The translations under genes and the position numbers were made by a program. From NCBI GenBank assembly GCA_044226015.1, contig JBGAHS010000006.1, forward strand, positions 288,001 to 352,000: DNA of 64,000 nucleotides, in the 5' to 3' direction. The notes beneath the pieces were generated by a model. The model was given only the letters and a program-made list of their open reading frames with translations. It ran no database searches and had not been told where the DNA came from. Of this stretch, positions 35,696-57,046 are shown one piece after another (the first letter of the stretch is position 1; each line of letters opens with the position of its first letter). Source of the stretch: Candidatus Obscuribacteraceae bacterium (GTDB lineage Bacteria; Cyanobacteriota; Vampirovibrionia; Obscuribacterales; Obscuribacteraceae).

Positions 35696-38600
35696 CTATT
35701 TTGCCCCCGCTGGAACAGATGTGCGTTCAGCCATCATCTTTTCGTATCGACTTCTGTAAACCGCGGCCTTATCAGGCTGACCGTTCCTCTCTAGAACGCT
35801 TGCGTAGTAGTTGAAGAGACCTATGGTTGAAGTGTCTTTCTCACCCTTGGCTCTTAGTCCAGCTTCAAGGGCCTTTTCGTAAGCATTGAAGGTTAATGCA
35901 ACTTGTTCTTTTGTACTTTCGCGATTGTCAGTTATCGTTTGACCGATCCACCAGAACGCTTCAAATGCGCGCTCAGCCTCCTCTTTACTCAAGGAGGCAA
36001 AATTCAGACTGGGAAGCTTATCGTTAACGGCTTTCAGATGTTCGATTGCTTTGTTTTTCGAACCGTCCTTATCCGTAAGCATCATTGGCTTCAAAGTTTG
36101 AAGAAGAGCTGCATACAACATGGTTTTGTCATGATCGCTCAGAGAAGGCGCTTTTAACAGCTCACTGATTTTCTCAACATTTTTCATGGCGGCACTCATT
36201 TCACCACATTGCATTTGAATTGCAGCGGCTTTAGCTAGCGAATAGCCTTCCTCAGCACGTTTTGCCGGGTCTTTTGCATAGATTCCCGCCGCTTCGAGGT
36301 TCAAGCTCAGGGCCTTGCCATAGTCGCGTGTCCTCTCCATCATTTGAGCAGCTCTCGAAATTGTATCGGCTGTCTCAACTGCATTTGGAGCATTCTTCTT
36401 GATCACATCAAGAGCCAATTCCGTCTGCGCTTTTATCTTCGAGGCATTGTAATAATATCCGTCACCCTTCATCATCGCAGAAGCGTAGCGCATTCGAGCC
36501 TGGGCAAGTTCAATGCTATCTGCTGGAAGAGCCTTTTCTCTTGCCGCTATAGACTGCTCCCAGAGCTGCTCGGATTCCCATTTTCTGGTCGAATTGCTTG
36601 CCTTCTTCTCAAGATCTTCAGCTTCATTACCAGTGTTAGGATTAGCCTTCAACCATTTATCAACCAGTTCATAAACCTGGTCAGATTTTGACGTCTCGAA
36701 TTTGTCCAGAACAGACTTGAAGGTCTCCCAAAACTCATTGTTTCGCTTGTCCTTGCCATCAAGACGGCTCTGCGCAACTTCAAGAAACTCTTTTATCAAA
36801 TGCATCTTGTTTGGATTGTCTTTTTCCAAACTTTCAATTTGTTTCTTCGCTTGAGCGCTTACCGAAGCATCAGAACTGCCCAGACAACTGATCACTTGCT
36901 TCCAGGCGCCTGACCAGAGTTTGTAGTCATCTTTTGTTAGTTTTGTATCTTTTGCAAGAACCTTATTTGCTAGCTCAAGACGAGCCTGCTCCGCGCCTCG
37001 GCCTGGCAGATTAGCCAGCAACTCCTTCAAAGCTTCGTCGTTCTTATCTATGGGATTTGAGATGCGAGCAATGGCATCTACGAAATGCTTCTGCATTTGA
37101 CTTTTCACAACGGCATCGTTGCTTTCGCTCAACTCAGAGAAAACTTTATAAGCCTGTATACGCATAGGGTCTCCGACCTTAACGCCTGAATTTGCGTCAA
37201 GTACACCGACTGCAAGCCCCATTCTTATTCTCTCACTGAGCCCATTTACTTGCAGCAGATCTCTTATCGCTGACAAACGTGGGTCATCAGATGATAGAGG
37301 TCGCGCCTTCATGTCTAAAGCAGCTTTCTCTAGAATTTGCCCCATTTCACTAAGTTGTGGTGACTTTGATTCTGGCAATTGGCTAATAAAAGAGTATGCC
37401 TTAAGAAGCTGTGCTTCAGCTTCAGGAGAGCGATTGCTTCCCCCATACAATTTGAGCATATGTTCCATTTTCGACTGTAGTATTTCTGGCCTCAGTGCCA
37501 GATGTGGTGGCAGTTTGAAATCAGAACTCTCACCAATTGCTTTCATGTAATTCTTTATGAGTTCACCATATTTTGGATCCTTCAGCATTTTCTCATGGTC
37601 TTGCTGCAGATCCGCAGCTAAGTTTCTCTGAGTTCTAACAAGTGTCTTCAAAGCATCAAGACTGTCATTCATAACTTTTGCAGCCGCCTCTTTTGGCATG
37701 GCCGCTAACAAGTCATAAGCTTCTTGCTTGGGAAACTCAGGCGTGATTCGAGCCAGAGCAACGTCAAGGTTTTCTGAACGAAGATTTTTCATCAACGATA
37801 TTGCATAAGGCTTATCAGCCGATTCTCCCATAGCTAACCGCGTAGTTTCCTCCACGGCAAGCTTAATAGTATCGTTGGCGACAGCGCGTTTTATTCCATT
37901 TGCCTTAAGTGTGTACTCAAGTGCTGCCATCTTCAAGTTATGGTCACCACTATTGATGGCATCTTTCAGCGGCGCCAATCGAGAGTCAGCGGCATCTTTT
38001 ATTTCCAGTGGAGTTTTGCTCTCTGCCATTTCTGCAAACATGGTGGCAAACTTCTTGCTTAAGGGGTGACTAGCACCCAATGTTGAGCTGGACAGAGTAG
38101 CCGCTCTAACAATTGCAGCCTGAGCCAGTCCAAGTTTGTCACTTGCCTCAAGACGCCTCAATGTCTCTTCAAGCGCTTTCTCGAGGCGCGCTGTATTTTC
38201 TGCAGAATCAGCTTTGAGATTTTTTACCGCATCAAGACTTCCATGCGCTGCAGCTGCAGAATCAGCGCCATCTAGTTTTGCTGAAATCAAAGCAGCTCTG
38301 GCTCTTATTTGTTCACTGTTTGCACCCTGGGACAACTCAGCCATCACGCGAGCAGCTGCGAATTGGTGCTCTTCAGTGAAATGTCCATTACTCTTGTCCA
38401 TGATGAAGTCAGCAGCTTTGTATCTGAGTTCCTCGGACTTGTTGCTCAAGGCAAACTTTGCATATACACTTGCTGCAAGCTTAAGATCTGTCTCCTTGAG
38501 ACCCCTATTCTCGGGAGAGAGTAGCAGCTCAGCAGCACGCACCCTCTGAATTTCCGAGAGTTTAGGATCATTCAGCGCCGACACAAGGAAGGGCACCCTC

Positions 38601-41600
38601 TGGTCAACTGCAGAGCGAATGCTCGGAAATTTTACACTAGATTCGCTAGATACCATTTGATCGACGATTCGAACAATACCATCATTCTTGCGCTTGAGAA
38701 TTTCCTGGTGTGCTTTGTTAGCAGACTCTCTGACTGAAGCATCTGAATGCTGAGTGGCAAAATATTTCAACGCCGGAATCATCTCTTTGTTTCCGAACCT
38801 CTGTAGCGTATCGAGCAACCTATTCTGATAGGCTACACTCTCGTTGTATCCTGCCTGACCTTGCCTTGGCATGAAGCGCATTTCCTGCTCAAGTGCTAGC
38901 GCAGCAATGCCGGCAGCTACCTCTGCATTCATTTTTCCTTTGTTTGGATCTGCAAGAGAATCAAGCGCATCCACAACTTTCTTTTTGTTATCTGCTGAAA
39001 GATCAATTTTCTCAGTCAACAAACTCTGCACGATCCAAGTCATATCGCCTCTTCCTGGACCGCTGTCCTTGCAGATTTTAGTGATTGCATCAACAGCCTT
39101 ATCGACAGCCTTAACTTTATCGGCATCTTCCAGCCCCAGTTCCTTGCCGTTACTCATAACAATGAAGGCGAGTGCTTTTCGTGCAAGAACACTTTGCGAA
39201 TCGTCGCCATCCTTCATCGCTTTTAGCATCAACTGATCAAATGACGACCACACATCGTTAATGACATTGGCTTTAGCATCTTTCTTCTTAGCTTCAAGTT
39301 CCTCTCTTCCCATGAGAAACTTGGTTAAGCCGCCGAGATTCGAAAGCATTTGGTTTACAGCCTGCCTCTCTGCTTCAAACCTTCCGGACCAGGTAAGAAG
39401 ACTCGAGTTTAGTTCCTTCGCAACTTGTCCCCACTTCCCCCACTCCCAGCTGAGAACGTCTTTGGGTCCCTCCAGCAGTGAAGCTCTTATTCGCTCAAAG
39501 GCTTGCTGATATTTTGCATTTCCTACCGCGCTAGTATTGTCCGGTCGTTCGGATGAGCCCAATCGAGGCTTATCTGGAGTATCAGAGATTGCTTTCTCCA
39601 CCATGCTTGAATCAATCCGTTTCAACTGATCAAGCATTGATTGGGCAAGTTTTGCTCTGCCAGTGGAGGAGCCATTTTTCACAATATCAGCACAGGCTTC
39701 TGCAATGCCATTGCGATCTAAAGATACAGGAGAATCCATCAAATATTGTGCAGCGGTTAGTCGCACCATGTCGTTCTTATCACGTAGAGCTTCTCGAAGC
39801 ACCGTCAAACGAGGGTCATCTTCACCCTTTATTGGCTCGACAAACATAGCCATATGCAGTGATTTTGAAACTGTATAGCCGTCTGCGTTTCTGTCAGCAA
39901 GTGCCTTGCCCATAAAATCAGCAAGTTTGTTTGCATCAGCCGGAGAATTAAATATTGAAGCAGGGTCATTCTTCTGCGCGTAGCGCAGCTCTAATTCAGC
40001 AGCTTTCCGCGCTAACTCATTTGATTCCGACTGATTATTTGACAATATTTTTGCAGCAGAAGATACAGAACGAAGTGGATGCGCGGCAGCATCACCATAG
40101 CCCGCAAAGACTTTCTGCTCTGTTCCGTCGGAACCAGATTTCGTGTAGACAGCACCATTTGCGTCAGTAAATCGTAAAGTTCCTCCGCGTCCACCCTCCA
40201 GAACCAGAAGTGTACCCTTATCAAAATTCCATGGCAGAACATTCATTCCTCTAAGAGATTCGGTTGATAGTATTTGCCCATCGGCACCCTTACCAACAAA
40301 TGAACCGTAGTTCTTATCCAATGACCAGGTTTGTACACTGTTGGCAGGCTTCGTTGTTACGCTTACATTTACTTTCTTTTCGTCACCCGTGAACACAAAC
40401 TCTTTTGTTTCTTTGCCACCAGGATATGTAAGAGTTATTTTGCGAGTATTCCCGCTCAATTCCTCTTCTATGAGCATTCCATTGACCTTCTGTACGTATG
40501 ATTTACCATCCTTTTTGTAGGTAAAATCACCGAAATCTCCTTTGACATTGAAACGGTCAAAGGTGCTCCACTGATATCGGTCAGTGGGACATGTCTCTGC
40601 TTTATTTAGCTGCACAGATGGTGCCTCTATCTTTTCTCCAGACTTAGTCTTGAAAAACTGAGGTTCTTGCGAATCGCGCTCAAAGACTTTACCAGAGGGA
40701 TACTCAGTAAATTTCACGACGCGGTCTTTCGAATCATATTCGAATTTGCGAATATTGCCAGCGTAATCAACCAGCTGAGGACGTCCGGCTGCATCAACAG
40801 ATTTAATTGGTTCTTTGTGCGATAGGGCATCGAGAATAGGAGCAATCTTCTCGCTCTTTAACTCTCGAAGGGCTTCAACAATTTTCTCCTGTAGCGCGAC
40901 ACTTTTTCCATATTCATCGTAGTTTGCAAGCGGGATTCGAGGCATACGCTTCAACTCAGCCTCAAGAACCCTTGCTAAAACAATTGCGGCCTCGTCCTTG
41001 CTTACTACTCCATTCTCTCCTGGCTTAAGTCCCATATATGAATCTACCAGCGAATGCCTGGCTGAGGCGCTTAGTGAGGGATTATTCAATAAAGCAGCTT
41101 CAAGTGGTCCGGCTAATTCACTTGCATATTTCTTAATCGCATCCATGTCTTTGTATGCATTGAAGATAGGTCCATACAATCCAGCTGCCGCTATTTCTGC
41201 GCTGTGTAATTCGGGATGGGTTACCGCATAGATGAGAGCTTTTCTGGCCTCAACACATTCTGGTTTGAAGGGATCAAACATCTTTCCAAAGCCATCAGAG
41301 CCCAGCGCCAGACTGCGTGCTTGAGACACCCAGAATTTTTCCGAACCATTCCGAGAAATCTTATTGTAGGTGTCTAAACCGTCATTTAGTAAGCCAGGTT
41401 TGGCGCGGTCGCGAACACGACTCTCCAATCGCTCGACTTCCTCCATAGCTTTGACAGGATCCATATCAGGACGTTGTCCGTATTCAAGATTTCTGAGGCG
41501 CGCCAGAACAGCTGGGTCCTTTTCGGTACGCAAAGCCTGCAATGCTATTTCATGAACTTCCAATGGCAGTGCTTTCTCTAAAGTCTTCACCGCTTGCAAC

Positions 41601-44600
41601 CGAACAACGGGAAAATCTGCTTGGACCTTATGTCCTTGATAGTCGCCTCCTGACAGTAACAATTTAGCTAAATCAGCAGCTTTATCGGGATTCATCTTTG
41701 TGAGCGCATCAAGTGCTGAAACACGCAGCTCTGGGCGCCCTGCTACATAATCGGGATAAAGTGTTCGGGAATCGAATGAACGAAAGTGCTGCCGTGCCTC
41801 TGGCATTAGCAGGGCTTCCAAATATCTCTGCGCTTTGCTTTGCTGTGCTTTGCTAGCACCTTCGAAAAGTTCAGGCATCTTATTCAACAGCACTTCGCGA
41901 AGTGCAAATCCTGCCTCTGTAGTAGGAGTATTTTTCAGGATTTTGAAAGTGCTTTCTCTTACTTGATCAGCTTTCTCAACTGACATATTTGCAAGCGTTG
42001 CCGCATCAATTTTTACCAGTGCAGCTATAGAAATTTCAGGGCTAGCCGTTTGTATACAATCAGCTAGAGCGTCCCCTATGATCTTCTGAGCCTTATCTTT
42101 CTTATCTCCGAATATTTCCGGACCTAAATCCTTCGCCGCTTGTGCAGCTTGAAGTCTTGCAACTAGCAATTCAACACGCTGATTGGGAGTCAAGTCTGTG
42201 TTGGGAGGTAAAGGATTCTCCAAAATTTTACGCAGATTACTTACATATGCATCACTGATGGCACCAGGCTTTGAACCAAGCAGCTTAGATTGTTTTGAAA
42301 GTTCTGCAATAGCGTCAGTTTGCTCATTGCTCAAGAAAAGCGCTCGTCCTTTATCCTTGTCCCCCACGATCACAGAGTCGCCTGACTTCACTTCCATCAA
42401 CTTGCCTTTGGGAACTGGTATATGGTCGCCATTTCTGGCAATCCAAACGGGACCATCCTTTGCAGCAACATATTGCTTGCCATCAGCTTCTATCTTAAAA
42501 ACTGCATGCGAAGGAACAATACCAGGACCATCGAGAATTACATCACCTTTGCTGCCAATTTCTACAAGAGAACCAGGAGTCACAGGTATACCATTCACAG
42601 TGGTTCGATCGAGAGCCACCATGCTCAGTGCCTGAGAGGCAAGAGCGCGAACATCTTTGTCAGCGGCGAGGTCAGAGGAAAGTCCTCGCAAGAATTTTTC
42701 GATAGACTTGGAGTCTCGTCCATAAAGACCGCTCAATCCATCGATGCGAGCATTATCGTCCGTCTCTCGAAGTAGCGCAGGTTCAACACTGGCTTTCAGG
42801 TGCTGTAGAATTGCGGCAAGCCGAGGACCATTAGCTGAAGCGATTGCGTCAAGCTTCACCTGCCGCGGAGTCTTATCACTCTGTATTACCGCCATCAAAG
42901 TGCTGGCAAAATCAGCAGCATTGTAATTTACTTTCTTTAGAAAGTCGTGGACATCATTCTGCGCATTTCTTAGCTGCTCAAGCTCATCTTTTGCAGTTTT
43001 TGCAGCAGTCTTCAGGTCTTCATTGTCAGGGTCTTTGGCAAGCTTTTCATTTGCTTCATTGTACTTCTTTTCGCCTTCAGCAGCCATTCGAGCATGAACA
43101 TTGAGGCTAGAGCTGCCCATTTGAGCTGTTCGGAAAAGCAAATCGCCTACAGCAATTTTAACTTCAGGATCGTCGCTGTTTCTGACTCTCTTATTGAGGT
43201 AGTCTAATACACCTGCAACTGTCTGATTTGTATTTGGAATTTGCGAGGTCAAACTATCATTGCCTCTGAGCGAAAGCAAGACTATCGCCGCAGCGACTTT
43301 CTCACGCTCTGTTCCAGACCAAAATTTGTCATCGGCATCTTTGAGAAGCTTCTTCCGGTCCGCATCGTCAGGCGATTTCAAAACACTTTCAGTCAAGCGG
43401 CTTAGAAGTCCTTCGGCAGAGCGATTATTGAATGTCGCTACATCATTGATATCGAGAGCGGACTTAGCATCTAGAGGACTAAGCTTTCCATCTTTTCCCA
43501 TAGACAATTGCAAAAGAGCTTTAGCAGCAGCATACTTCTCTGATGGCTCAGAAGGATTCTTATAAATATTCGCAAGCTCTTGTCTGTATGCTTCTCGGTC
43601 CTCATCACTTGGTGACTTGCTCAAGAGTTCTGTGCTTTTATGAGCTATGGCTTCTGGGCTGCGCGCCAACTTCTGTTGTAAGTCAGAAGTACTTATTCCC
43701 ATTACTTGCTCTGGATACTTTCCTTCAGCATCCTTTGACAAATTGAGAAGAGCCGCAGCGATTGCATATTTTTTCGCATCAGTCGCAGTCTTCCATTCTT
43801 CAGCAAGTTTGACTGAAAGCTTTACTCTGTCAGGATTGTTTGCAGGAAGTTTTATTGCTTCCTTAGCTGCATTTCCAATCTGCTCACTCTCTGCAGATTG
43901 ATTTTTGTTTCCTAATCGCTTGATGTATTCATCAATCGTAGGCTTCATTGCTTGCTTGAACTGCTCATCGGTAGCTTCCGAAGGGTTTGCATACAGTGGC
44001 TTGTCTTTATCACGTGCGATTTTGTGACGTTCCATTGCATCAAAAAGCATAGCTCTTTGAGGGTCATTCTTGTCTTTAATGGCAGCGGCAGTATCGCTAA
44101 ACTGAGCAAGGAAGTAACAATCAGCCAGTGGAAATACTCCAATAGGCAAGACTCTTCCGATCACGGGAAGCTTCCATCCCTCATACAGTTTATGTGCACC
44201 GCGTACTGCAGTGTCATACAACCCCATGGTCATCTTCACTTCAGTGCCAGCCGCCACAACTCTACCGAGTTTGTATGCTTCGACTGCACTTTCCGCCTCT
44301 TTTGCTGTTCTTCCCCACTTAAAGACGTTTACAGAATTCCAAACAGCCTTTTGTGCACCCGCAGGCAACATTCCAATCGAAATATCAGCAAGTATGACGT
44401 AATGCCGCGCTTCGTTTATTTTCCTTCCATAACCAAAAGGCGTCAGGTTTTCGATTGCCTGTTTTCCAAAACCAGTAGCACCGAGTGCGAAGTGCCATGC
44501 CCCCTCTTTTACAGCGGCTTTAAAAACCTGTGTACCTGTCATTTTCATTGCTTTTGCAGCCATTGCAGCCGCACGAGCTTCATACAGACCACTAACAATC

Positions 44601-47600
44601 ATGCCAGCGTCTACTGTTGCGTTTACAACGTTACCAGTCTGTTTAGCCCGTTCCTGAGCTGTCTGCCAGTCACTCAACTTCCCAGCAGGCATCAAGCGCA
44701 TTCGACCATTATCAAATATTGGAACATAATCGTTTTTGTGAAAGACTTTTGCTTCCATTGTAGGTTTTTTATGGACGCTATCGACTCCCCACCAATTGTT
44801 GTAACTGTAGAACCGTGCCCATTGGTAGTCCTGATATCCAGTGACTTTCACATAGTCGCCTTTGGGATTTTCCTTGCCGTCTTTATCGCAAGGAACCGAA
44901 TCAAAACTATAACGTTTCAAGTTGAACTCTTCACCATTAGGCGCCCGCTTGCCCAGTTCATAGGAGCCATCGGGCTTAACTGCTAAGACTCGCCAATCTC
45001 CTTGTCCATCTGCTAGCCGAACAAATTTGCCAACATCACTTTCATCGCCTTTCAAAAGAGAAGGACTCTTGGGATCTTTTGGATTTTCTAGATTTGCTTT
45101 CTTGAAGGCTTCGACCTCTTCCTTCTTAACTTTGTGCTCACGCTCAAAATCGCCTTCTTCAACATGGACCAGCAAGCGGTCTTTCTCTGCCAATGCCAGA
45201 GTTAGTTCCTTTGTGACTTTATCGACAGCCGGAGACCATTTGGTTAACCAACGTTCCATCTTCTCAATCTTGGCGATGTTGGCTGGGTTGTTTCTATCAA
45301 TTCCTTCCGGCATATCAAGTTCAACCTTCACAGTGCCGTTTGAATTGCGCGTGAGCTTTCCAGGGAAATCGGGGTCTTTCAACGCGTCATCAGGAAATGT
45401 TGTAGCAGCCGCGCCCACATCCTTTTGCCATTTGAAGAAGTCATTCAAGCTTGGCCAGTCTCTTCCATGTGTAGTAGTGGCCGCGTTAAATGCTGCAATT
45501 GTTTCAGCGTAAGTTCTTACCCGATTTGCTGTTTCGATCCATGGAAGAGCACCAGCACGCCAGCGCAGCATTTCCTCAGGGCTGCCATCTTTTGGGGGAT
45601 TCCAATCAACAGGTTTAAGGCTAGGTATTTTCGATAATGACTCTTGAGTGTAGGCAACCTGCCCCGCAAGAACTGATTCATTATGGGACGCCTGTGCTTT
45701 AATAGTCCAAGCAAAAGCTCTAATGAACTTAGCTACGTCTTCCTCTGTCGGAAGCTGAGCATCTTTGATTTCTGAGAAATTCAAATTCGGCTTCACATCG
45801 CCAGCTCTCAGTCGTGCCCTGAACAGAGCATCGCCCTCTCTCATCTGGCTGCCACTCTCACTGATACCAGGTCCATACACAGCACCCGGAGGAAACTGTA
45901 AACCGCGCATATCTAGCATCTTCATCCAGTCAAGCGATTCGTTCTCCATGACTTTGCTTGCTTCTTGCCATAAGCGCTTCGACTCTGGTCCAAATTCACC
46001 GCGATCCCATTCATCCTTTAGTTTTTTCTCGTCAATAATGGGAACTCCAGCCTTTTTGTCCAATAGGGCTTTTTCATTTTGAATGGCAAGATTTCTTTGA
46101 ATGCCTGGCAACAACAGCATAAGAATATCAGTCGTCATCTTGCGATCAGGAAGCAAATCAAGTTTTGCTAGCACGGGTTTATCCGCAGCATCCTTTGCTT
46201 TGTCTCCAGATTGATTATCAGCAAGATCTTCATGGGTTGGGCGTTTGTAACCTGAGCCAGGTTTCTCCATTACGTCAGGGACGAACCCTGCTTTCAAGCC
46301 TGCATCTTCTGGAGCGAACTCAGGCACAGATTCATGGTCAGGAGCCGGACGACCTTCATAAGCGCCTGCTTTTATCTCAGCGGGAGGGGCAGCGGCAGCA
46401 GCCTTCTCACGGTAGGCTATGAAAGCACTTGCAAGAATAGTTAGCGCTACAAGCTTTCCTCGTACTGCACCACCTGGTCCTCTCTCCCCAGCGAGTCGTT
46501 CGATATCAGTTTCACTTGGGCGAAATCCCTTTATGATCTCTCGTGCTCTAGCCTCTGCTCTTATGCGATCAGGATTCTCTTTATCAGCGATCTTAAGTTG
46601 ATCAACGAACTTGCTTTCTGCGTCTATGGCAACCTTTAACTCGGCTATTTTTCGTTTATCTTGGTCTTTTTCTGCCTTACCTTCCTCAGCCTGCAGTTTT
46701 TCCTTCAGCCCTTTGATGCGACCTTCCCATAACTCTGCAAAGGTGACATCTCTATCAAAGCCACCAATCTTAACTCCAGTACTCGTAATCTCCAGTGCCG
46801 CAACTTTAGACGACAAGGGTGGAAGCTTGGAGACATCGAGCGCTGTAGCACTGCCTGTTACCGTTCCGACTTCGGATGGAAGTTCAACGTGGCGCGCAAG
46901 CGACTTGCTGACAAAATCGCGAACACCTGCACGGTCAGCCAAAGCAGCGGCGTCAGTGCCTCGAGACGTCTGCTCTACTACAAGAGAATAAACGGCTCTG
47001 CTAAGTTCACCAACATTGCCCCGCACAAGACCTTCGGGAAGCACGATTTTTGTCATGACTTTATCGGGAGCAATTTCAGTCTTGCTACCTTCGACATAGA
47101 ATTTGCCGTCGCTCCGAGTTACTTTCTTGTTCTCAGCGGTGCTGTATTCCACAGTTGCTTTTGTGGCGTCCTTTGAAATCTCGACATCAGTGTTGTTTTC
47201 AATGAGAAGAGAATCCTTAATTCCTTCTGCCTTTAGGAAATCAAATACGCTATCTCTCAACCTGGCACCGGCATCAAGAGGCGAATTCCGCAGTGAATTG
47301 CTGATTTCATTTACTTTTTCGTGAAACCTGCCAATGACTCCTTCATTTAGCAGTGATTTGTTGACGTTCAAACTCTCCACCGCAGATGGTGTCACGCTCG
47401 CTTCACGTTCCTTAAGTCTCTCTTGAATCAACCCGAGTCTTTCCTTGATGAGCTCGGCATTGGCACCATCTGGAATACCAAGTGCTTTACCCAACTTCTC
47501 TGGACTCATCTCGTCCAGAGCATAGTAGGTGTGAAACCAGCCTTCAGATCCTTTATTTGCGGTAGCTCTCTCGTGAGCCTCTAACTTCAAGTGCTCGTAG

Positions 47601-50600
47601 ATGCTCTTCAGTTCCTCTCCGGGTTTAGCATTTTCAATTGCAGCTTTAAGGGCTGCGCTGAATTCGGATTGCCCGGACGCCTCGGGCATAAGAGTCTTCA
47701 CAGCCAGTTCGGAATAAGCAATATTCAGACCTTGCTCTGCACTCAGACTTGGTTTAAGTGCACGAATTTCCGCAGCTTTCATGGATAGTTCTACTGCGTC
47801 TTTTGCAGAAACCCCACGAGTAATTTCCAGCATCGCTGCCTCTCTGGCAACAGCGGCATCAACTTTTTCAGCTTTGACTATGGCTTCTTGCCTGCTCAAG
47901 ATAGCATCTGCAGTCTTAGTGTCTACCTTGTACTTTGACTCGATTTCAATCACAGCTGCCATACGCTGGATAACTTCAGTTGCTTCCTTCTTCCCTCCTG
48001 TACGTTTGTATATTTCGCTAGCTGTAGCTTCGTCGATTCCCTCTGCCTTTTGCAGTATGTCGCCAAGGCGATTAATTCTATTTGCAGCTTGCGATAAAGG
48101 CGCACTTTGGCTCACCACGACTTCGAATACGCGAGCAAGCTCATTCGAAGATTTGAAATCGATAGGGTTGCTAGCACTAACATCACAAAGTGCTCTAAGA
48201 TGCTCTTTCATTTGAGCTAGTCTTGTGTGCGCTGGTCTGGCCACATCAAGCTGAGCTTCCACGATGTGAGCGAGGTCGCTTATATGACCTAGATCAATCT
48301 GTTTTTCTCTTCTTCCTGTCTTATCTCGAAACTCACTCATACCGATGATAGAGCCATCTTCATAAAGTCGAACCTTATGCACTTCTTTTAGTACTGAATT
48401 ATCGAGTTCGACCTCCTTGTACTTCATTGGCTTTCCGGTGGCTGCACTTCTTCTCGGTTCATATTCTTCCGAACCAGTATCAACACTGACGTCGGATTTT
48501 CCAGGACCCCCTTTCAGGTCCACTCCTCCCCAAGCTGAAGAGATGGCATCGTGTTCGAACCCTTTTACAAGCCTGTCACCCAGAGCTTTTAACGCATTGT
48601 AGTGCGGCAGTGCACTATTAGCACGGTGGTAGAGTTCCGCAAGCACCGGGTTTGCTGGAGTTTGACCACGAAAATAATCATGGAATCGCTTTATTCCCAC
48701 AGACTCTGCATATCTCTGATCTAACCCTAACCTACCAAAAGAGAGAAACGATGAGCGCATATCTTTATTGATTGTCGAAGCTTCTATAGATGGATGTTTG
48801 CCGACAAAACCTTGAACATATGAGCGCATCTCGGTCTCGTTTGCATTTGCCAGGCTTGAACCAATGGTTCCATCGGGTGGCACATGATTCCCGATAGCAG
48901 ATTCAGCAGGAGACCCTGCCCAGATTGCCTTACCCTTTGCCTCTTTTGTATAAAGGCTTCGAGTCCAGTCGATCGGATAAACTCTGTCTCCTTTCGGGTC
49001 AAGAAATATACCATCGATGCCGCAAGCATCAGCATTCGAGCCATGCGCTGCTGGAATGAAAACCAATTTGCCTTTCGAAGGAATTTCTTCCTTACATGCT
49101 TTCATAGCAGCTATTGACGCGTTGTACTCGTAAATATTACCTCTAGTGTCACTAGCATGAGGGGCTTTGAAATGTGGCGCTACTTCTAGATAGCGACTCC
49201 TTGCAAACTCGAGTACTTCTTTACTTACTTTGGGATCCAGAAAATGTGAATAGGGAATTTCCAATGCTTCCGCGTTCATCGGAATATTGATCAAGTCCGC
49301 AAAAACCCTCATTCTATCGGGTCCAAAGTTCTTTGCAAAACCAGGTTGTTTGAGGACATCAATTGCTTTTGTTAGCTCAGGAATTTTGTCTGGCTGAGCT
49401 TGTGCCAGTTGAATCATTTCAGATTTAATTCGCTCAACAAGCGCTGGCTCCATTCCAGCGTCGCGCATTTGATCTAACGGTGCAAGTTTCTGAGCAATCT
49501 CATTTACTGCAACGACTTTCTGAGATTCGAGCAGGCTGAGCTTAGCAAGATCTATCGGTAAACTAGCGTCTTTTGATACGGCTGAAACAAGGTCGAGCAA
49601 GGCTTGCCTTTTTGCGACATCCATTCCATTTCTGGTATCACCTATCTTTTCGATCGCATTGAGTGCACTCTGGCAAGCCTCCAGCCTATCACGATTGGAG
49701 CCGCTTCCTTCGCCTTTAGAAAGTACATCCACTTCCTTCAGCAGATTTGCATGAGCAGTCTTCAGTCGTTCTATAGCTTCGGGTTTAATACCGGCTTTTG
49801 CAAGGTCTTGCGCGGCTCTGTTCATATCAAAGCTTGACACCATTGCTGTTCCAATAATATCAGCGGCTTTATTCGTGCCTTCTGGAGCGTGTACATCAAT
49901 TGATTTTGGAAACTTACCTGTCTCTGAAAGTGTTAAAGCACGTTCAGCCAGTGCATTCACTTGCGCAATGGACAATTTAGTTTCCCTGGCGAAACGCTCT
50001 CTTGCTTCCCTCCTCTCGGCTTGCCCCTGAGGGTTCAATTCGTCAGAAACCTTTTTGATTTGAGCACGAACTTCAGCTGGAATTTCTCTTTCGGAAAAAT
50101 ACTTGAAGACTCCATTTATAGAGCCACCATAATTTCCTTTCCGGTCAATCTGCGGTGTACCATCTTTATTGAAAGCGTAATCAGTATCAATACGTGCGAT
50201 AGCAACATCCCCTGGATTGGGTCCCGTTCTCTCCACAACGAAGTTCAAACCATGCTGATCGTGATCACCCATAAGAGCACTAAAAGCAACAGTGCGAGCT
50301 ATTTCTGTGCGTAATTTCGGATCAATTTTATCCATCATGTGAAAGACTCGCTCATCTAGATGCGAATATTTCGCACGCAGTGCCGCATCTTCGCGCGACA
50401 TATTGTGCAGGAATGTATGCAGGTTAGAACCTTCAACACCCACGAACTTCTGAATCATCATGCCATCGCGCATAACGGTTGCAGGAAAGAGACCACTTGA
50501 ACCCATTCGTTCCGCGAGCTTTTGTGCAGCTAGATCATTATCAGCTCGAACCCAATCACGCACGTAAGCCGGCGGTTTGTGAATCATAACTTTTATGCGT

Positions 50601-53248
50601 TCACCATTTGGTCCTTCTACAGAACCAATAAAGAGGTTATGACCGGAATTTCCATCAGTCCACCTACAGTCAATATTAACTCTCGAACGGGGGTCAGCTA
50701 GTATTGATTTAACATCAATAGATTTGTGAGCTTCTCGAATCGCTGGATTTTCATGCAGCAGCTCAGGGAGTGCTACCTTCGTCTTGACCGCTTGCTCGTG
50801 TCTTACGCGAACTTCACCGCTTGCCTCGTCATATGCAACAACACGCCATTTTTGAATTTCACCAGTGCTTCTTTGATAATTGACTTCTTCCCCTGGTTTA
50901 GGTACATGGTCACCGTTAAACTTACGGTACTCTTCGCTACCCATGATTCTTTCACTTGGGCGAACAAGCTCTATTTTACCGTCAACAATTCCATTGACGA
51001 TCCATTTTCTGCTACCAAAAGAGACCTCTCTTCCAGGTTCAAGACCATACTCCTTTGCTTTGGCTGGTGCCTCTTCGGCCTTCACAGGTGGTGTCACTAC
51101 TTTCTGCTCAACCTGACGTTGTGCTTCAGCGAAAGCAGCCTCATTATTCCGTTTCAGATCTTCAATCGAAACTGTTCTCTCGTAGGACAAGTCCTTGGTG
51201 AAAACAAGATCTTTTTTCGTATCAGGATCTTTGTAGCCAATTAAACGCCAGCCATCATCTATAGCTCCACCAGTTCGTCTAAGCTTGTAAGTCTCACCTA
51301 AGCGCAACTCTCTACCGGGGTTCAGTTCGTTAACACTTTCTACGGAAGCATCCTTTGATCCCGAGCCAACAATCACGGCTTTCCCCGATTTAGCATCGAT
51401 GGATTTTACTTGCCAAACTAAATCACTGTATCCTACCTTTTGCCCGATTAATCGGTCATATACGTTTTGCTCATTGCCCGCTACAACTGGCTTAGCAGGA
51501 GCATCTTGTGGGCGCAACTGGGGTACTTCCAAGCCTGGTTGATGCGATGGACGCGCTTCTCTGGGCTCACCATAAATCATTTGACGAGGGTCAAATATCT
51601 TCTCCCTTCCACCAACTGCTAGAGTTGTCCAAGCATGATTCAACGCATATTCAGGCGCCAAGCCAGCGGGGTCTCCGCCACAATAACCTTTTATGACCTT
51701 CATCTGAGGACGCTCAGAATCATTTGGATAGAATGAATCGAATACAACTTTGGTTAGAACTGCCTGGTGATTACAGACCCCGGCGCCAGTTCGATTTTTT
51801 GCGGCTTCTAAGAAATCCCCCAGCATCAACCGTCCGCCAGCATGTTCTGCACGAAGTTTGTAATAGCCTTCATCGACAGCCTTGTCGCTCCATCCGGATG
51901 GTTCCAACGCTGCTTTGGCTCTTTTGGCTATCTCTCTAGCTAGTTCTTCGGGGCGATCTTTTAAATGTGAGAGTTCCTTCTTGCACTCCTCGATGAATTT
52001 CGTCAGGGCTGGGTCTTTCCCAGGACGAGTATCAACAACATAAGATGGTCTTGTTTTATCATTGTGATGGCCATTTTCATCAATTCGATTCTGACCACCA
52101 ACAACCTGGAATCCATCAGGAATACGTCCTGAGAATTCATGATTTTTCAAATAAACGTTTGAGGCATCTCTAGCCGTTTGGCTTGCGGCGATATCAGCTT
52201 GGTCTTTGGCGGACTGGTCAGCGTTTGGCTCAATCTTCTCGGCCTTGTAGCCCCCTGGCTTCCACGCTTGTTTCGATGCATCATACACTCCCCAGGGCAA
52301 TAGAATGTCGCGCCCAAGGCGAATCTGATCACCAGGTTTTAACTCAACACCCTTAGCATCTACTGGTATCGTCTTTCCGTCACGAAGAATAGCTGTTCCA
52401 TTTTTACTTCCAAGATCTTGAATAATTACCTTTCCATCAACCTGGCTAAGCAGCGCATGACGCCTACTAACTTGCTCACTACTTATATTGATTTCTGAGT
52501 CAGAGCTGCGCCCTATAATAAGTACATCCCCTGAGGGTAGCTTCATTTCGCTTGCTTGATCTCTTGCATTAGAACGCACACCAATTCTAAAGCCCTCCCA
52601 TTTATTCTCGCCAGTTCGCACACTGGCTATGCTGGGAAAATCCATCAGATCAACAGAACGTTTGACGAGAGGTCTTTCATCAGGTGCGAAATTCTCAGTA
52701 TCAAATGCGGTATTAGAAAGCATCAATTCAGGGGCAGCCTGAGCTACTGCCTCTGGTGGCAAGCCTGCCACCGTCTGGAGTGGCGCAGCCGACAAATTTC
52801 TCATATCTGACATCACATCTGGTGTCAGTTCTTTGCCATTGCCATTGCTTTGTTCACCATGCTCAAGTTCAGCTGAGATGTCCTCAACATCCTCTTGAGC
52901 CTCATCCACTTGTGATATTGGCGAGTCGACGGAAGCATCTTTTTGTTTGGGTTCATCCTCCTTCGATTTGTCCACGTTTAAAGCATCGGCAAATATGCTT
53001 TTCAGCAGCAGCTCAGCATCATCAAGTCCCTTGTCTTTCTTACTCTTTCGAAGCTTGCTATCGAACAATGAGTCAGCTTCAAAACCTAGCCTGTCTTCTG
53101 CATCCTCATGGTGACGAGCAGTTTCTCTTTCGACATCCTTTTCCTCCTGCCGCTGAGCAGATTTATCGTCTGCTTTAGTGTCTGTGCTCTCCCTTTTGTC
53201 CTCGTTGTCCTCATCGGTATCAACGTCAATTTTCTTTGGATCAGGCAT
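35696..53248 (-). CDS. Giant multidomain protein (~5850 aa): FHA, transglutaminase/EDR1-like, PI3/4-kinase/HipA-like, PD-(D/E)XK-like, hydrophobic segment, second FHA, HEAT, YD-like and TPR repeats
   Basis: Uninterrupted 17.5-kb ORF; start MPDPKK at 53248 with agggga RBS; motifs GRSS..SRRH..SKNGT, GVCNHQ..NHAW..IFDP, GDHDQHGLN..IDTDYAF, DACGID..PIDWT. Confidence 0.88.
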   Translation of the reverse strand: MPDPKKIDVDTDEDNEDKRESTDTKADDKSAQRQEEKDVERETARHHEDAEDRLGFEADSLFDSKLRKSKKDKGLDDAELLLKSIFADALNVDKSKEDEPKQKDASVDSPISQVDEAQEDVEDISAELEHGEQSNGNGKELTPDVMSDMRNLSAAPLQTVAGLPPEAVAQAAPELMLSNTAFDTENFAPDERPLVKRSVDLMDFPSIASVRTGENKWEGFRIGVRSNARDQASEMKLPSGDVLIIGRSSDSEINISSEQVSRRHALLSQVDGKVIIQDLGSKNGTAILRDGKTIPVDAKGVELKPGDQIRLGRDILLPWGVYDASKQAWKPGGYKAEKIEPNADQSAKDQADIAASQTARDASNVYLKNHEFSGRIPDGFQVVGGQNRIDENGHHNDKTRPSYVVDTRPGKDPALTKFIEECKKELSHLKDRPEELAREIAKRAKAALEPSGWSDKAVDEGYYKLRAEHAGGRLMLGDFLEAAKNRTGAGVCNHQAVLTKVVFDSFYPNDSERPQMKVIKGYCGGDPAGLAPEYALNHAWTTLAVGGREKIFDPRQMIYGEPREARPSHQPGLEVPQLRPQDAPAKPVVAGNEQNVYDRLIGQKVGYSDLVWQVKSIDAKSGKAVIVGSGSKDASVESVNELNPGRELRLGETYKLRRTGGAIDDGWRLIGYKDPDTKKDLVFTKDLSYERTVSIEDLKRNNEAAFAEAQRQVEQKVVTPPVKAEEAPAKAKEYGLEPGREVSFGSRKWIVNGIVDGKIELVRPSERIMGSEEYRKFNGDHVPKPGEEVNYQRSTGEIQKWRVVAYDEASGEVRVRHEQAVKTKVALPELLHENPAIREAHKSIDVKSILADPRSRVNIDCRWTDGNSGHNLFIGSVEGPNGERIKVMIHKPPAYVRDWVRADNDLAAQKLAERMGSSGLFPATVMRDGMMIQKFVGVEGSNLHTFLHNMSREDAALRAKYSHLDERVFHMMDKIDPKLRTEIARTVAFSALMGDHDQHGLNFVVERTGPNPGDVAIARIDTDYAFNKDGTPQIDRKGNYGGSINGVFKYFSEREIPAEVRAQIKKVSDELNPQGQAERREARERFARETKLSIAQVNALAERALTLSETGKFPKSIDVHAPEGTNKAADIIGTAMVSSFDMNRAAQDLAKAGIKPEAIERLKTAHANLLKEVDVLSKGEGSGSNRDRLEACQSALNAIEKIGDTRNGMDVAKRQALLDLVSAVSKDASLPIDLAKLSLLESQKVVAVNEIAQKLAPLDQMRDAGMEPALVERIKSEMIQLAQAQPDKIPELTKAIDVLKQPGFAKNFGPDRMRVFADLINIPMNAEALEIPYSHFLDPKVSKEVLEFARSRYLEVAPHFKAPHASDTRGNIYEYNASIAAMKACKEEIPSKGKLVFIPAAHGSNADACGIDGIFLDPKGDRVYPIDWTRSLYTKEAKGKAIWAGSPAESAIGNHVPPDGTIGSSLANANETEMRSYVQGFVGKHPSIEASTINKDMRSSFLSFGRLGLDQRYAESVGIKRFHDYFRGQTPANPVLAELYHRANSALPHYNALKALGDRLVKGFEHDAISSAWGGVDLKGGPGKSDVSVDTGSEEYEPRRSAATGKPMKYKEVELDNSVLKEVHKVRLYEDGSIIGMSEFRDKTGRREKQIDLGHISDLAHIVEAQLDVARPAHTRLAQMKEHLRALCDVSASNPIDFKSSNELARVFEVVVSQSAPLSQAANRINRLGDILQKAEGIDEATASEIYKRTGGKKEATEVIQRMAAVIEIESKYKVDTKTADAILSRQEAIVKAEKVDAAVAREAAMLEITRGVSAKDAVELSMKAAEIRALKPSLSAEQGLNIAYSELAVKTLMPEASGQSEFSAALKAAIENAKPGEELKSIYEHLKLEAHERATANKGSEGWFHTYYALDEMSPEKLGKALGIPDGANAELIKERLGLIQERLKEREASVTPSAVESLNVNKSLLNEGVIGRFHEKVNEISNSLRNSPLDAGARLRDSVFDFLKAEGIKDSLLIENNTDVEISKDATKATVEYSTAENKKVTRSDGKFYVEGSKTEIAPDKVMTKIVLPEGLVRGNVGELSRAVYSLVVEQTSRGTDAAALADRAGVRDFVSKSLARHVELPSEVGTVTGSATALDVSKLPPLSSKVAALEITSTGVKIGGFDRDVTFAELWEGRIKGLKEKLQAEEGKAEKDQDKRKIAELKVAIDAESKFVDQLKIADKENPDRIRAEARAREIIKGFRPSETDIERLAGERGPGGAVRGKLVALTILASAFIAYREKAAAAAPPAEIKAGAYEGRPAPDHESVPEFAPEDAGLKAGFVPDVMEKPGSGYKRPTHEDLADNQSGDKAKDAADKPVLAKLDLLPDRKMTTDILMLLLPGIQRNLAIQNEKALLDKKAGVPIIDEKKLKDEWDRGEFGPESKRLWQEASKVMENESLDWMKMLDMRGLQFPPGAVYGPGISESGSQMREGDALFRARLRAGDVKPNLNFSEIKDAQLPTEEDVAKFIRAFAWTIKAQASHNESVLAGQVAYTQESLSKIPSLKPVDWNPPKDGSPEEMLRWRAGALPWIETANRVRTYAETIAAFNAATTTHGRDWPSLNDFFKWQKDVGAAATTFPDDALKDPDFPGKLTRNSNGTVKVELDMPEGIDRNNPANIAKIEKMERWLTKWSPAVDKVTKELTLALAEKDRLLVHVEEGDFEREHKVKKEEVEAFKKANLENPKDPKSPSLLKGDESDVGKFVRLADGQGDWRVLAVKPDGSYELGKRAPNGEEFNLKRYSFDSVPCDKDGKENPKGDYVKVTGYQDYQWARFYSYNNWWGVDSVHKKPTMEAKVFHKNDYVPIFDNGRMRLMPAGKLSDWQTAQERAKQTGNVVNATVDAGMIVSGLYEARAAAMAAKAMKMTGTQVFKAAVKEGAWHFALGATGFGKQAIENLTPFGYGRKINEARHYVILADISIGMLPAGAQKAVWNSVNVFKWGRTAKEAESAVEAYKLGRVVAAGTEVKMTMGLYDTAVRGAHKLYEGWKLPVIGRVLPIGVFPLADCYFLAQFSDTAAAIKDKNDPQRAMLFDAMERHKIARDKDKPLYANPSEATDEQFKQAMKPTIDEYIKRLGNKNQSAESEQIGNAAKEAIKLPANNPDRVKLSVKLAEEWKTATDAKKYAIAAALLNLSKDAEGKYPEQVMGISTSDLQQKLARSPEAIAHKSTELLSKSPSDEDREAYRQELANIYKNPSEPSEKYAAAKALLQLSMGKDGKLSPLDAKSALDINDVATFNNRSAEGLLSRLTESVLKSPDDADRKKLLKDADDKFWSGTEREKVAAAIVLLSLRGNDSLTSQIPNTNQTVAGVLDYLNKRVRNSDDPEVKIAVGDLLFRTAQMGSSSLNVHARMAAEGEKKYNEANEKLAKDPDNEDLKTAAKTAKDELEQLRNAQNDVHDFLKKVNYNAADFASTLMAVIQSDKTPRQVKLDAIASANGPRLAAILQHLKASVEPALLRETDDNARIDGLSGLYGRDSKSIEKFLRGLSSDLAADKDVRALASQALSMVALDRTTVNGIPVTPGSLVEIGSKGDVILDGPGIVPSHAVFKIEADGKQYVAAKDGPVWIARNGDHIPVPKGKLMEVKSGDSVIVGDKDKGRALFLSNEQTDAIAELSKQSKLLGSKPGAISDAYVSNLRKILENPLPPNTDLTPNQRVELLVARLQAAQAAKDLGPEIFGDKKDKAQKIIGDALADCIQTASPEISIAALVKIDAATLANMSVEKADQVRESTFKILKNTPTTEAGFALREVLLNKMPELFEGASKAQQSKAQRYLEALLMPEARQHFRSFDSRTLYPDYVAGRPELRVSALDALTKMNPDKAADLAKLLLSGGDYQGHKVQADFPVVRLQAVKTLEKALPLEVHEIALQALRTEKDPAVLARLRNLEYGQRPDMDPVKAMEEVERLESRVRDRAKPGLLNDGLDTYNKISRNGSEKFWVSQARSLALGSDGFGKMFDPFKPECVEARKALIYAVTHPELHSAEIAAAGLYGPIFNAYKDMDAIKKYASELAGPLEAALLNNPSLSASARHSLVDSYMGLKPGENGVVSKDEAAIVLARVLEAELKRMPRIPLANYDEYGKSVALQEKIVEALRELKSEKIAPILDALSHKEPIKSVDAAGRPQLVDYAGNIRKFEYDSKDRVVKFTEYPSGKVFERDSQEPQFFKTKSGEKIEAPSVQLNKAETCPTDRYQWSTFDRFNVKGDFGDFTYKKDGKSYVQKVNGMLIEEELSGNTRKITLTYPGGKETKEFVFTGDEKKVNVSVTTKPANSVQTWSLDKNYGSFVGKGADGQILSTESLRGMNVLPWNFDKGTLLVLEGGRGGTLRFTDANGAVYTKSGSDGTEQKVFAGYGDAAAHPLRSVSSAAKILSNNQSESNELARKAAELELRYAQKNDPASIFNSPADANKLADFMGKALADRNADGYTVSKSLHMAMFVEPIKGEDDPRLTVLREALRDKNDMVRLTAAQYLMDSPVSLDRNGIAEACADIVKNGSSTGRAKLAQSMLDQLKRIDSSMVEKAISDTPDKPRLGSSERPDNTSAVGNAKYQQAFERIRASLLEGPKDVLSWEWGKWGQVAKELNSSLLTWSGRFEAERQAVNQMLSNLGGLTKFLMGREELEAKKKDAKANVINDVWSSFDQLMLKAMKDGDDSQSVLARKALAFIVMSNGKELGLEDADKVKAVDKAVDAITKICKDSGPGRGDMTWIVQSLLTEKIDLSADNKKKVVDALDSLADPNKGKMNAEVAAGIAALALEQEMRFMPRQGQAGYNESVAYQNRLLDTLQRFGNKEMIPALKYFATQHSDASVRESANKAHQEILKRKNDGIVRIVDQMVSSESSVKFPSIRSAVDQRVPFLVSALNDPKLSEIQRVRAAELLLSPENRGLKETDLKLAASVYAKFALSNKSEELRYKAADFIMDKSNGHFTEEHQFAAARVMAELSQGANSEQIRARAALISAKLDGADSAAAAHGSLDAVKNLKADSAENTARLEKALEETLRRLEASDKLGLAQAAIVRAATLSSSTLGASHPLSKKFATMFAEMAESKTPLEIKDAADSRLAPLKDAINSGDHNLKMAALEYTLKANGIKRAVANDTIKLAVEETTRLAMGESADKPYAISLMKNLRSENLDVALARITPEFPKQEAYDLLAAMPKEAAAKVMNDSLDALKTLVRTQRNLAADLQQDHEKMLKDPKYGELIKNYMKAIGESSDFKLPPHLALRPEILQSKMEHMLKLYGGSNRSPEAEAQLLKAYSFISQLPESKSPQLSEMGQILEKAALDMKARPLSSDDPRLSAIRDLLQVNGLSERIRMGLAVGVLDANSGVKVGDPMRIQAYKVFSELSESNDAVVKSQMQKHFVDAIARISNPIDKNDEALKELLANLPGRGAEQARLELANKVLAKDTKLTKDDYKLWSGAWKQVISCLGSSDASVSAQAKKQIESLEKDNPNKMHLIKEFLEVAQSRLDGKDKRNNEFWETFKSVLDKFETSKSDQVYELVDKWLKANPNTGNEAEDLEKKASNSTRKWESEQLWEQSIAAREKALPADSIELAQARMRYASAMMKGDGYYYNASKIKAQTELALDVIKKNAPNAVETADTISRAAQMMERTRDYGKALSLNLEAAGIYAKDPAKRAEEGYSLAKAAAIQMQCGEMSAAMKNVEKISELLKAPSLSDHDKTMLYAALLQTLKPMMLTDKDGSKNKAIEHLKAVNDKLPSLNFASLSKEEAERAFEAFWWIGQTITDNRESTKEQVALTFNAYEKALEAGLRAKGEKDTSTIGLFNYYASVLERNGQPDKAAVYRSRYEKMMAERTSVPAGAK

Positions 53249-53546
53249 TAAACTTCCCCTAAGCACAGTTACTCTTAGAGATTTACCCGCATAACTCGAA
53301 AGCCTAGACCAGCGCAGGATAGCAATTAATGTGAAAACTGATTTCTTGCGAACTTCCGCATCAGAGCTACAGAAACGTGAATTTTAAGCTCATCGTGGAC
53401 TCGCACAGTTCGCGCCAATTCTAATCAGATAAATTCTGATGCGGTTATCCCCATGTACAACAAACCGAGACTAACTTATCATCCTGACATGTGCGTGACA
53501 GGGCGGGCTGCGCTGGATATCGAACTAAGCGGAAACATGAATTTCT

Positions 53547-56114: not shown

Positions 56115-57046
56115 ATAACGCCCTCGATGGCGTTTCTAAATTCAGTGAATGATTTATAGGGACCGCAAAAATCAACTCCATCGGATCCGAATTCAAGCCC
56201 CACAGACTTTGCCACCACTCGTGATAATTCTTGCGACATAGTCCTCATTTCATGTGGTGCTCTTACATAACGAAGGGCAGTGAAATTGTGATTTGCTGTG
56301 GTTTCATACCTATGAATTAGCGCAGCAAACTTTTCTGAAAGCTTCGCTTCCATGCTGTTATTTGTTTTCAGAACATGCTCTCCACATGCGATTTCCCAGA
56401 GAATAAATCCTGCAGCCCAAATATCATTAGCCTTGAGCTCAGGATAATAGGAAGGCGTTGTTATAACAGCTGAAAGGTCTCTGCCATTTTCAGCTCTGAT
56501 TCTGCCGTAGTATCCAGGATCAATCAGAGTAATTTGATCTTCAGCACTCACCATAATGTTTTCTGGTTTCAGATCACCGTGCCCCCGATAACGCACGTTA
56601 TGATCAAGACTTTCAAGAACACCGAGCAATTTATGGAACAGGGAGAGGCTAGCAGAATTTGCCTGCATTAGCTTTCTCAAGCTAGGTCCTTGAATAAGTT
56701 CCAAGCGAGCAAAGCTAAAGGCGGAATCATCGACAAATTCAAGGCAATTTACGACTCCAGGAATTCCTGCAATTGCCTCAAGATAACGAGCCTGCTCCCG
56801 CAATAGGTCTTGCGAGTTAGGTACAAACTCCAATACACCACTGCTGATATGTTCCAATGCATGAGACGAGAAACAGCCTGTGTCAACTTCACCGCCACCA
56901 AAGCCGACACCAGCAACTTTCAGTGCAAAACTTCCATTCTTGTCAGTAGCTTTGTAAATTGAGGAAAATGCCCCGCGACCTATGAGTTCTCCAACTTCCA
57001 ATTCGCCGATTTTTAGACCATTCCAGTGAATTTGTTCTTGTTTCAT
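56111..57046 (-). CDS. Hanks-type Ser/Thr protein kinase
   Basis: IGRGAFSSIY, FALKV, HGDLKPEN, LIDPG, NDIWAAG. Confidence 0.85.
   Translation of the reverse strand: MKQEQIHWNGLKIGELEVGELIGRGAFSSIYKATDKNGSFALKVAGVGFGGGEVDTGCFSSHALEHISSGVLEFVPNSQDLLREQARYLEAIAGIPGVVNCLEFVDDSAFSFARLELIQGPSLRKLMQANSASLSLFHKLLGVLESLDHNVRYRGHGDLKPENIMVSAEDQITLIDPGYYGRIRAENGRDLSAVITTPSYYPELKANDIWAAGFILWEIACGEHVLKTNNSMEAKLSEKFAALIHRYETTANHNFTALRYVRAPHEMRTMSQELSRVVAKSVGLEFGSDGVDFCGPYKSFTEFRNAIEGVI

Follow-up and report, generated by a model that had tools for sequence, protein, structure and literature searches.

A family-wide C-terminal tail and its linked partner gene in Obscuribacterales: a possible two-component protein delivery system

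Introduction

The window analyzed here is a stretch of 64,000 nucleotides from a Candidatus Obscuribacteraceae genome (assembly GCA_044226015.1, contig JBGAHS010000006.1, positions 288,001 to 352,000). Two of its proteins share a block of about 320 amino acids (aa), which is internal in a giant protein and C-terminal in the next gene. This block is the long form of a family-wide C-terminal tail, which is borne by proteins with variable N-terminal parts (the cargo) and linked to a second conserved gene (the partner), and in the giant cargo and partner are fused. We propose from the sequences a two-component delivery, in which the tail would dock the cargo on its cognate partner and the partner would deliver it across a target membrane; we regard the chances of this reading as evenly balanced.

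Several described systems resemble this one in part. Polymorphic toxins (CDI, Rhs, LXG, MuF) combine a constant N-terminal trafficking part with a variable C-terminal toxin and a downstream immunity gene. Here, too, large genes lie in arrays and carry shuffled toxin-like domains, one of them the Pfam domain 'polymorphic toxin system DSP-PTPase', but the polarity is reversed, with a constant C-terminus, several enzymes are present per chain and immunity genes are lacking: none of the 25 co-oriented gaps listed leaves room for one (maximum 328 bases, 20 of them below 200). GlyGly-CTERM/rhombosortase signals are formed at the C-terminus by a turn rich in Gly and a hydrophobic helix, often accompanied by basic residues, in substrates with an N-terminal signal peptide. 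The tails end in the same elements, and the initial annotation had likened the end of the block to a sorting signal or membrane anchor. However, no NCBIfam sorting-signal model matched either block or any of four other tails at E<=0.1; moreover, the signal peptide is absent, a folded domain of 100–300 aa precedes the helix, and no rhomboid exceeds the rhombosortase cut-off, which the controls did not exceed either.

Translocator/effector pairs of type III secretion systems (T3SS) show acidic disordered N-termini, and a coiled coil followed by a Gly/Ala-rich hydrophobic region. Such N-termini, and in the partner the same succession of coiled coil and Gly/Ala-rich region, occur in the present proteins, but no SctV/FlhA export-gate gene was found in the genome that hosts the window (8.19 Mb, 92% complete; 0 matches, with the control positive in 4/14). 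Likewise, this genome gave no VipB or VgrG OB-fold match for type VI secretion (T6SS) or extracellular contractile injection systems, with positive controls, while a T6SS tube search gave no signal but its control was also silent.

The X-Tfe effectors of the Xanthomonas type IV secretion system (T4SS), as presented in passages of PMC8740702, join variable N-terminal enzymes to one conserved C-terminal module, XVIPCD, which binds the all-alpha domain of VirD4; the same layout is seen here, with a VirD4-type coupling protein in the genome. The XVIPCD described in those passages has about 120 aa with a Gln-rich tail, and each effector has its cognate immunity gene, whereas the Obscuribacterales tails (140–340 aa) have no sequence match to it, end in a hydrophobic helix with a short polar end, come without immunity genes and fall into subtypes according to a dedicated partner gene, with which the cargo may be fused. 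Passages of PMC6978384 on the large clostridial toxin (LCT) translocase family and single-chain AB toxins describe interchangeable effectors, a likeness that extends to the AB-toxin-like order of the fused giant: N-terminal enzymes, a central conserved weakly hydrophobic helical region and C-terminal repeats. In contrast to the toxins of those passages, there is no detectable homology to the translocase, the system usually consists of two genes with several cargo genes per partner, and no autoprocessing protease is seen at the junction of the giant. PF12920, the model of the LCT translocase, whose pore formation and cargo translocation depend on pH, had no match in the genome, but its control was silent too, and no such Pfam match lies on the giant.

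In its workings the system resembles effectors with a constant C-terminal module and AB toxins, but it lacks tested hallmarks of classical polymorphic toxins, of XVIPCD effectors, of GlyGly-CTERM substrates and of T3SS and T6SS cargo. Literature searches, which did not extend to subscription papers and bioRxiv supplements, found no paper on such a system.

Two copies of the block in neighboring genes

The two genes and the repeated block are located as follows (window coordinates).

35696..53266, minus strand: giant, 5856 aa, with a cargo unit (aa 1–2291), a linker and a partner unit (aa ~2350–5856) in one frame
32228..35482, minus strand: next gene, 1084 aa, a stand-alone cargo with an uncharacterised N-terminal part of 735 aa and the block at its C-terminus
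46394..47401, minus strand: block copy 1 (aa 1956–2291), internal in the giant
32249..33268, minus strand: block copy 2 (aa 739–1078), C-terminal in the next gene
46394..46819, minus strand: family-wide tail core (~140 aa) of block copy 1

The duplication reported in the initial annotation was confirmed, and the eight motifs that it had quoted were all found at the positions given. Within the limits that it had set (giant aa 1972–2288, 47353–46403; next gene aa 755–1075, 33220–32258), 164 of 316 residues are identical (52%), and the alignment scores 846, whereas none of 300 shuffles exceeds 56; BLASTP between the two proteins gave 49% identity over 363 columns (E 2e-100). Homology starts slightly earlier, at about aa 1956 in the giant and aa 739 in the next gene, and the upstream flanks are, as had been noted, unrelated (score 62, against 39–63 for 10 shuffles). 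Since only 20 of the 77 four-fold sites are identical (26%), silent sites are saturated, and the duplication is therefore old and conserved at the protein level.

The block had been called novel, and its search results agree: there was no match in Pfam, NCBIfam or Atlas. The AlphaFold2 model (predicted local distance difference test, pLDDT, 73; predicted template modeling score 0.51) contains an alpha/beta domain and a disordered segment, then a beta-hairpin together with a long helical hairpin, and finally a terminal helix of low confidence (pLDDT below 50), and copy 1 is predicted to have these parts. No fold stood out in Foldseek (best E 0.22), and VIA retrieved only a generic helical hairpin (best Z 7.0), the N-terminal domain being barely tested by it. 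An explanation of the block by a known domain was rejected on these grounds.

The block as the long form of a C-terminal tail

A third copy of the block (45% identity) forms the C-terminus of a 1071-aa gene on contig C1 of the host genome. When a ten-block profile was run against 1.84 billion representatives, 26 matches were obtained, one of which (P0025) was false, a repeat protein, and was dropped. Of the 25 credible matches, 23, some of them short fragments, stop no more than 40 aa before the C-terminus, and the two internal ones are both fused giants, namely the cluster of the window giant itself and a 6352-aa giant of genome G098. Thus the proposed role as a shared C-terminal module on different cargoes was borne out, and the profile search did recover further C-terminal copies behind diverse N-terminal parts.

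Additionally, genes beside partner homologues were found to end in a module of ~140 aa related to the block, with the order beta-hairpin, helical hairpin, Gly-rich turn, hydrophobic helix and polar end of ~20 aa; the block is the long form of this tail. With a model built solely from ten tails of other genera, a small locus set gave matches at the block positions of G096 (E 3e-6) and G098 (E 2e-5); among the 16661 open reading frames (ORFs) of their own genome, the giant came 2nd and the third copy 3rd, at E of only 0.04–0.07. A 23-row tail profile matched 28 of the 104 genomes of the family. Seven tail genes are counted in the host genome by the last model. Three of its tails are distant (E 0.13 before hand-seeding), and the hand-seeded link to them was accepted only once an independent model had found them (E 1e-7 to 1e-11). 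An early match in G002 was dropped as an SMC coiled coil, and the matches on G002:C277, internal in short ORFs, were left out.

One of the seven belongs to a minimal pair (C8:496934-500155), in which a 376-aa gene with a three-Asp motif and a tail lies 25 bases before a 688-aa partner. Compact pairs of this kind, with overlapping or abutting frames, were seen in G073, G081, G026, G102, G100, G103, G099 and G024.

The partner gene and its fusion to the cargo

A paralogue of the second half of the giant stands alone in the host genome as a 2569-aa protein. The parts of the partner unit and the junction are as follows.

45134..46033, minus strand: partner core domain (aa 2412–2711), of no known family
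44087..44644, minus strand: Gly/Ala/Ser-rich, low-charge, weakly hydrophobic helical region (aa 2875–3060), a candidate membrane-inserting part
35696..43969, minus strand: variable repeats with weak HEAT, RHS-like and TPR matches, all below the Pfam cut-off
46187..46402, minus strand: Ala/Pro-rich acidic linker, at the site of a stop codon and a new start in relatives

The partner core matched 64 of the 104 family genomes, but 0/148 genomes of the other families of the class and 0/300 further genomes of the phylum. The low-charge Gly/Ala/Ser-rich helical region is kept in 65 partner homologues, with mean hydropathy peaks of 1.12 and 0.86. Minimal partners (625–720 aa) hold a leader, the core and this region and nothing else, and longer ones add FHA, HEAT, RHS-like and TPR repeats. 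The partner model (pLDDT 78) reached at best E 0.05 in Foldseek and Z 7.6, on one helix, in VIA; the best E of a PDB sequence search was 0.16, and Atlas matches below 0.9, among them a PT-TG cluster at 0.86, serve only as leads. Tail and partner are unnamed families without a sequence or fold match.

When the 104 family genomes were searched with the block plus the downstream 400 aa, block and partner were found in one frame in four genera (G000, G098, G096, G095), and as two genes in G028, G086, G089 and G090, where the partner starts 45–132 bases after the block. Homologues split directly after the block thus exist, and the giant is a fusion. Of the suggestion that two effector-like units are joined in it, the fusion stands, while the second unit is a conserved partner gene and not effector-like. 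The Ala/Pro linker described after the REK motif is also present (33% Ala+Pro in aa 2289–2360). In G028, a long hairpin (z -6.0) lies between the two genes together with a purine-rich start.

In the tree of the partner cores (37 rows, rooted at the midpoint, with three long branches and one row of undetermined state), the four fusions all fall in one starred clade of 10 rows, the genes are separate in 27/27 rows outside it, and the fused label needs 3 changes; the separate state is therefore ancestral. It may have been followed by either one fusion and later re-splitting or repeated fusion. G093:C382 runs to its contig end and is not callable as fused or split. An assembly artefact was rejected, as a contig from a second run, of another study, spans 44000–48500 with 7 substitutions, no indel and no stop; this run is near-identical and may not be fully independent.

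The alternation of fused and separate forms within one clade, and a linker that is low-complexity and unalignable, would also suit an incidental loss of the stop codon between co-transcribed but functionally unrelated genes, with the block as a generic structural spacer. The fusion is nevertheless kept in four genera at 30–43% core identity, and the linkage recurs in upstream, divergent and convergent layouts, and we consider this explanation extremely unlikely.

Three partner loci deserve mention. The homologue in G008 is in at least 3 ORF pieces with tail genes downstream, a sequencing error being possible, as the VirD4-like gene of the same genome also has internal stops. In G004, a second partner core near the contig end may mark a partner-partner fusion. 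In the host genome, a partner paralogue after metH (C11:18547-29250) is preceded by a 951-aa gene without a tail, a layout shared by G002, G003 and G006, which suggests a distinct, vertically kept subtype.

Linkage of tails and partners, and a possible export route

A tail gene may stand alone or in an array of two or three, and lies upstream of, divergent from or convergent to the partner. In a first hold-out of 20 loci picked by partner match alone, 8 had a tail neighbor at E<0.01; the 9 tail ORFs concerned, on which the tail model had not been trained, all carry the match within 6 aa of the C-terminus, against a background of 6 matches at E<0.001 among the 16661 own-genome ORFs. The second hold-out was more distant: 3/20 loci had a tail neighbor at E<0.01 and one more at E 0.08; about eight further tail-like ends were recognized by eye only, and several loci had none. 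The linkage is strong but not obligatory.

The pairing was examined for 50 cargo genes from 35 loci. The identity between tails goes with that between their partners (rho 0.53, with 0/2000 permutations as high), while N-terminal similarity does so with rho 0.17. The nearest tail was at a top-5 partner locus in 43/50 cases, the nearest N-terminus in 26/44; for the giant, the nearest tail lies at the 3rd-ranked partner locus and the nearest N-terminus at the 16th. Furthermore, tail subtypes differ between loci of one genome in G025, G086, G096 and G121. As judged by these comparisons, the data demonstrate co-inheritance with cargo exchange, and they are not proof of binding.

Both window proteins have acidic, non-hydrophobic leaders and no N-terminal signal peptide, and 0/20 partner N-termini resemble one. 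A loose A-S-x-K/R-L-S/A-x-E/D-A-W pattern occurs in the acidic leader of a few cargo and partner proteins (window 53100–53130 and other N-termini), but this shared motif is not enriched in the host genome, where non-seed matches about equal those of controls. With regard to secretion, the host genome has chromosomal VirD4-like and VirB4-like genes (C10:63035-70709, with Replic_Relax, a 1047-aa VirD4-like and a 952-aa VirB4-like gene), and the VirD4-like ATPase is present in 95/104 family genomes. PF03135 VirB4 had no match in the host genome, a VirB4 of TraG/TraC type being found instead, and VirB10-like matches were four and weak. T4SS delivery of effectors into algae has been proposed for the related Vampirovibrio, as a prediction and not a test, in the part of PMC4451040 concerned, and passages of bioRxiv 10.1101/2023.11.21.568195 make no mention of Obscuribacter.

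The tail could be an export signal for the chromosomal type IV coupling ATPase, in the manner of XVIPCD, with the partner merely co-secreted and no stable complex formed. In the X-Tfe layout of the PMC8740702 passages, variable enzymes likewise end in a conserved module, the VirD4-like and VirB4-like genes are at hand, and orphan tail genes exist. One coupling protein per genome, however, fails to explain why subtypes follow the local partner in the four genomes named above; in the fusions the tail would have to work 3500 residues from the C-terminus, and partners without a tail would need export too. We judge this explanation unlikely.

Cargo domains

The domains recognized in the cargo unit of the giant are listed below.

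52313..52519, minus strand: FHA domain (aa 250–318), E 3e-15
51467..52009, minus strand: EDR1-type peptidase-like domain with Cys and His kept, assigned transitively via paralogues that match PF14381
49877..50719, minus strand: kinase-like domain with HipA/PI4K-type motifs; Pfam matches weak and below cut-off
48827..49234, minus strand: domain whose three invariant Asp follow a PD-(D/E)xK-like pattern; no library match

Some tail-bearing proteins carry the Pfam domains FHA, EDR1-type peptidase, DSP phosphatase, PRTase-CE and AvrB/AvrC. The kinase-like domain of the giant matched LepB_N in the range of E 0.003–0.05 and HipA_C at E 0.04, both below cut-off, and the three-Asp domain is putatively nuclease-like by its motif; neither label found support in the PDB, and Pfam support was weak or none. 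A cargo of G110/G114 joins the first 1100 residues of the giant (FHA-peptidase-kinase) to the N-terminal part of the third copy, with a different tail subtype. By such comparisons, cargo domains are demonstrably shuffled among tail-bearing proteins.

Terminal helix, anchoring and processing

The hydrophobic helices of the two window copies are the following.

46415..46453, minus strand: hydrophobic helix of copy 1 (aa 2272–2284; uncharged span of 14 residues)
32270..32308, minus strand: hydrophobic helix of copy 2 (aa 1059–1071)

In 56 tails, the median of the best 13-residue hydropathy is 2.27 and the median uncharged span is 19; the span reaches at least 15 residues in 49/56 tails and at least 19 in 29/56. 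Both window copies have 14 uncharged residues, and the split clade has amphipathic ends, as do the tails of G028, G086, G090 and G008. The membrane anchor of the initial annotation is therefore possible for most tails of the family and doubtful for the window copies and the split clade. A second hydrophobic segment lies at aa ~560–590 of the 1084-aa gene (window 33710–33800), and the cargo of G086 and G090 has one near aa 262–296.

These helices bear on a further explanation, in which the cargo is tail-anchored in the inner membrane of the producer and forms, together with the partner, a cytoplasmic conflict or defense-signaling complex, a repeat sensor with kinase, phosphatase, peptidase and nuclease effectors, from which nothing is exported. 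The long uncharged spans of most tails are consistent with it, as are the lack of signal peptides, the FHA, kinase-like, phosphatase, HEAT and TPR domains, and the absence of T3SS and T6SS markers from the searches of the host genome; immunity genes would be unnecessary. The short spans of the window copies and the amphipathic tails are contrary to it, and if the helix spanned the membrane in the fusions, the partner half with its many repeats would end up in the periplasm. Domains like AvrB/AvrC and LepB, moreover, are known from injected effectors. On balance, a complex of this kind seems rather unlikely.

The giant could alternatively be a polyprotein, with the helix as an internal signal or sorting sequence after which signal peptidase or a rhomboid cuts to restore the two proteins. 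In some tails and at the fused junctions of G098, G096 and G095, the basic residues, the hydrophobic helix and the A-x-A-like ends look like a signal peptide, and the host genome has six rhomboid-type genes. However, A-x-A occurs in just 14/56 tails, against 7.3 expected from shuffles, and the four fused linkers have no conserved motif, so that neither processing nor a signal-peptidase site is supported. Stand-alone partners have no signal peptide, the sorting-signal models gave no match, and none of the six rhomboid-type genes is over the rhombosortase cut-off, although the controls likewise gave none over it. The polyprotein that had been considered for the giant is very improbable.

Proposed delivery by cargo and partner

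Sequence comparisons establish the C-terminal position of the tail, the shuffling of cargo, its linkage and fusion with the partner, and the tracking of partner type by tail type. In the two-component delivery that we propose, the tail would dock the cargo on its cognate partner via the helical hairpin and the terminal hydrophobic helix. The Gly/Ala-rich region of the partner would insert into the target membrane, and the partner would deliver the cargo enzymes into another cell, probably a eukaryote, given the lack of immunity genes and several cargo domains of the eukaryote-directed effector type. Cargo and partner would be exported without a signal peptide, most plausibly via the family-wide chromosomal VirD4/VirB4-type machine. 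The fused giant may supply the partner function to itself and, in trans, to the 1084-aa gene and the unlinked third copy; all three have the same tail subtype.

Several observations weigh against this delivery. Partner hydrophobicity is marginal, and the partner model matches no pore-former. Nearly all genomes of the family have the VirD4-like gene, whose presence is therefore not diagnostic. A tail match at E<0.01 is missing at 12/20 and 17/20 partner loci of the two hold-outs, some tail-less loci such as those of the C11 type have not even tail-like ends, and four tail genes of the host genome have no partner within 14 kb. Plain co-inheritance can yield the tail-partner correlation, and related genomes are not independent; several tails in the pairing test were picked by eye, and the many N-terminal pairs that score zero lower the N-terminal correlation by construction. 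Most cargo proteins (23/33) have no Pfam match, and FHA, kinase, phosphatase, HEAT and TPR domains also suit cytoplasmic signaling.

Taken to its full extent, the proposal would be an undescribed two-component delivery of Obscuribacterales, a new class of translocase loaded with multi-enzyme cargo through a cognate tail and passing between a binary form and a single-chain AB-like form of 600 kDa; we put this forward only tentatively, as possible though not probable. Together, tail and partner make up a gene system that most genomes of this common, uncultured family possess. If enzymes are indeed delivered, it would constitute a translocase of a new class and offer, for the first time, a clear clue to the use of the giant Obscuribacterales proteins, and the cargo of eukaryote-type effectors would reveal a predatory or host-manipulating life style of this uncultured order. 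The minimal natural version (376-aa cargo and 688-aa partner; elsewhere about 600 + 650 aa) is small enough for expression, so docking, specificity and pore formation are directly testable.

Neighboring genes in the window

A 403-aa coiled-coil gene (31020–32231) is convergent with the 1084-aa gene and overlaps its stop by 4 bases. The region upstream of the giant (53547–58823) begins with a divergent 855-aa gene with an LRR-like end, followed by two tandem protein-kinase genes (56111–57966) and an LRR gene (58038–58823). The end of a 3565-aa ORF, with no Pfam match in its in-window part, occupies 60555–64000 and runs past the window; the host genome contains 37 ORFs of at least 3000 aa.

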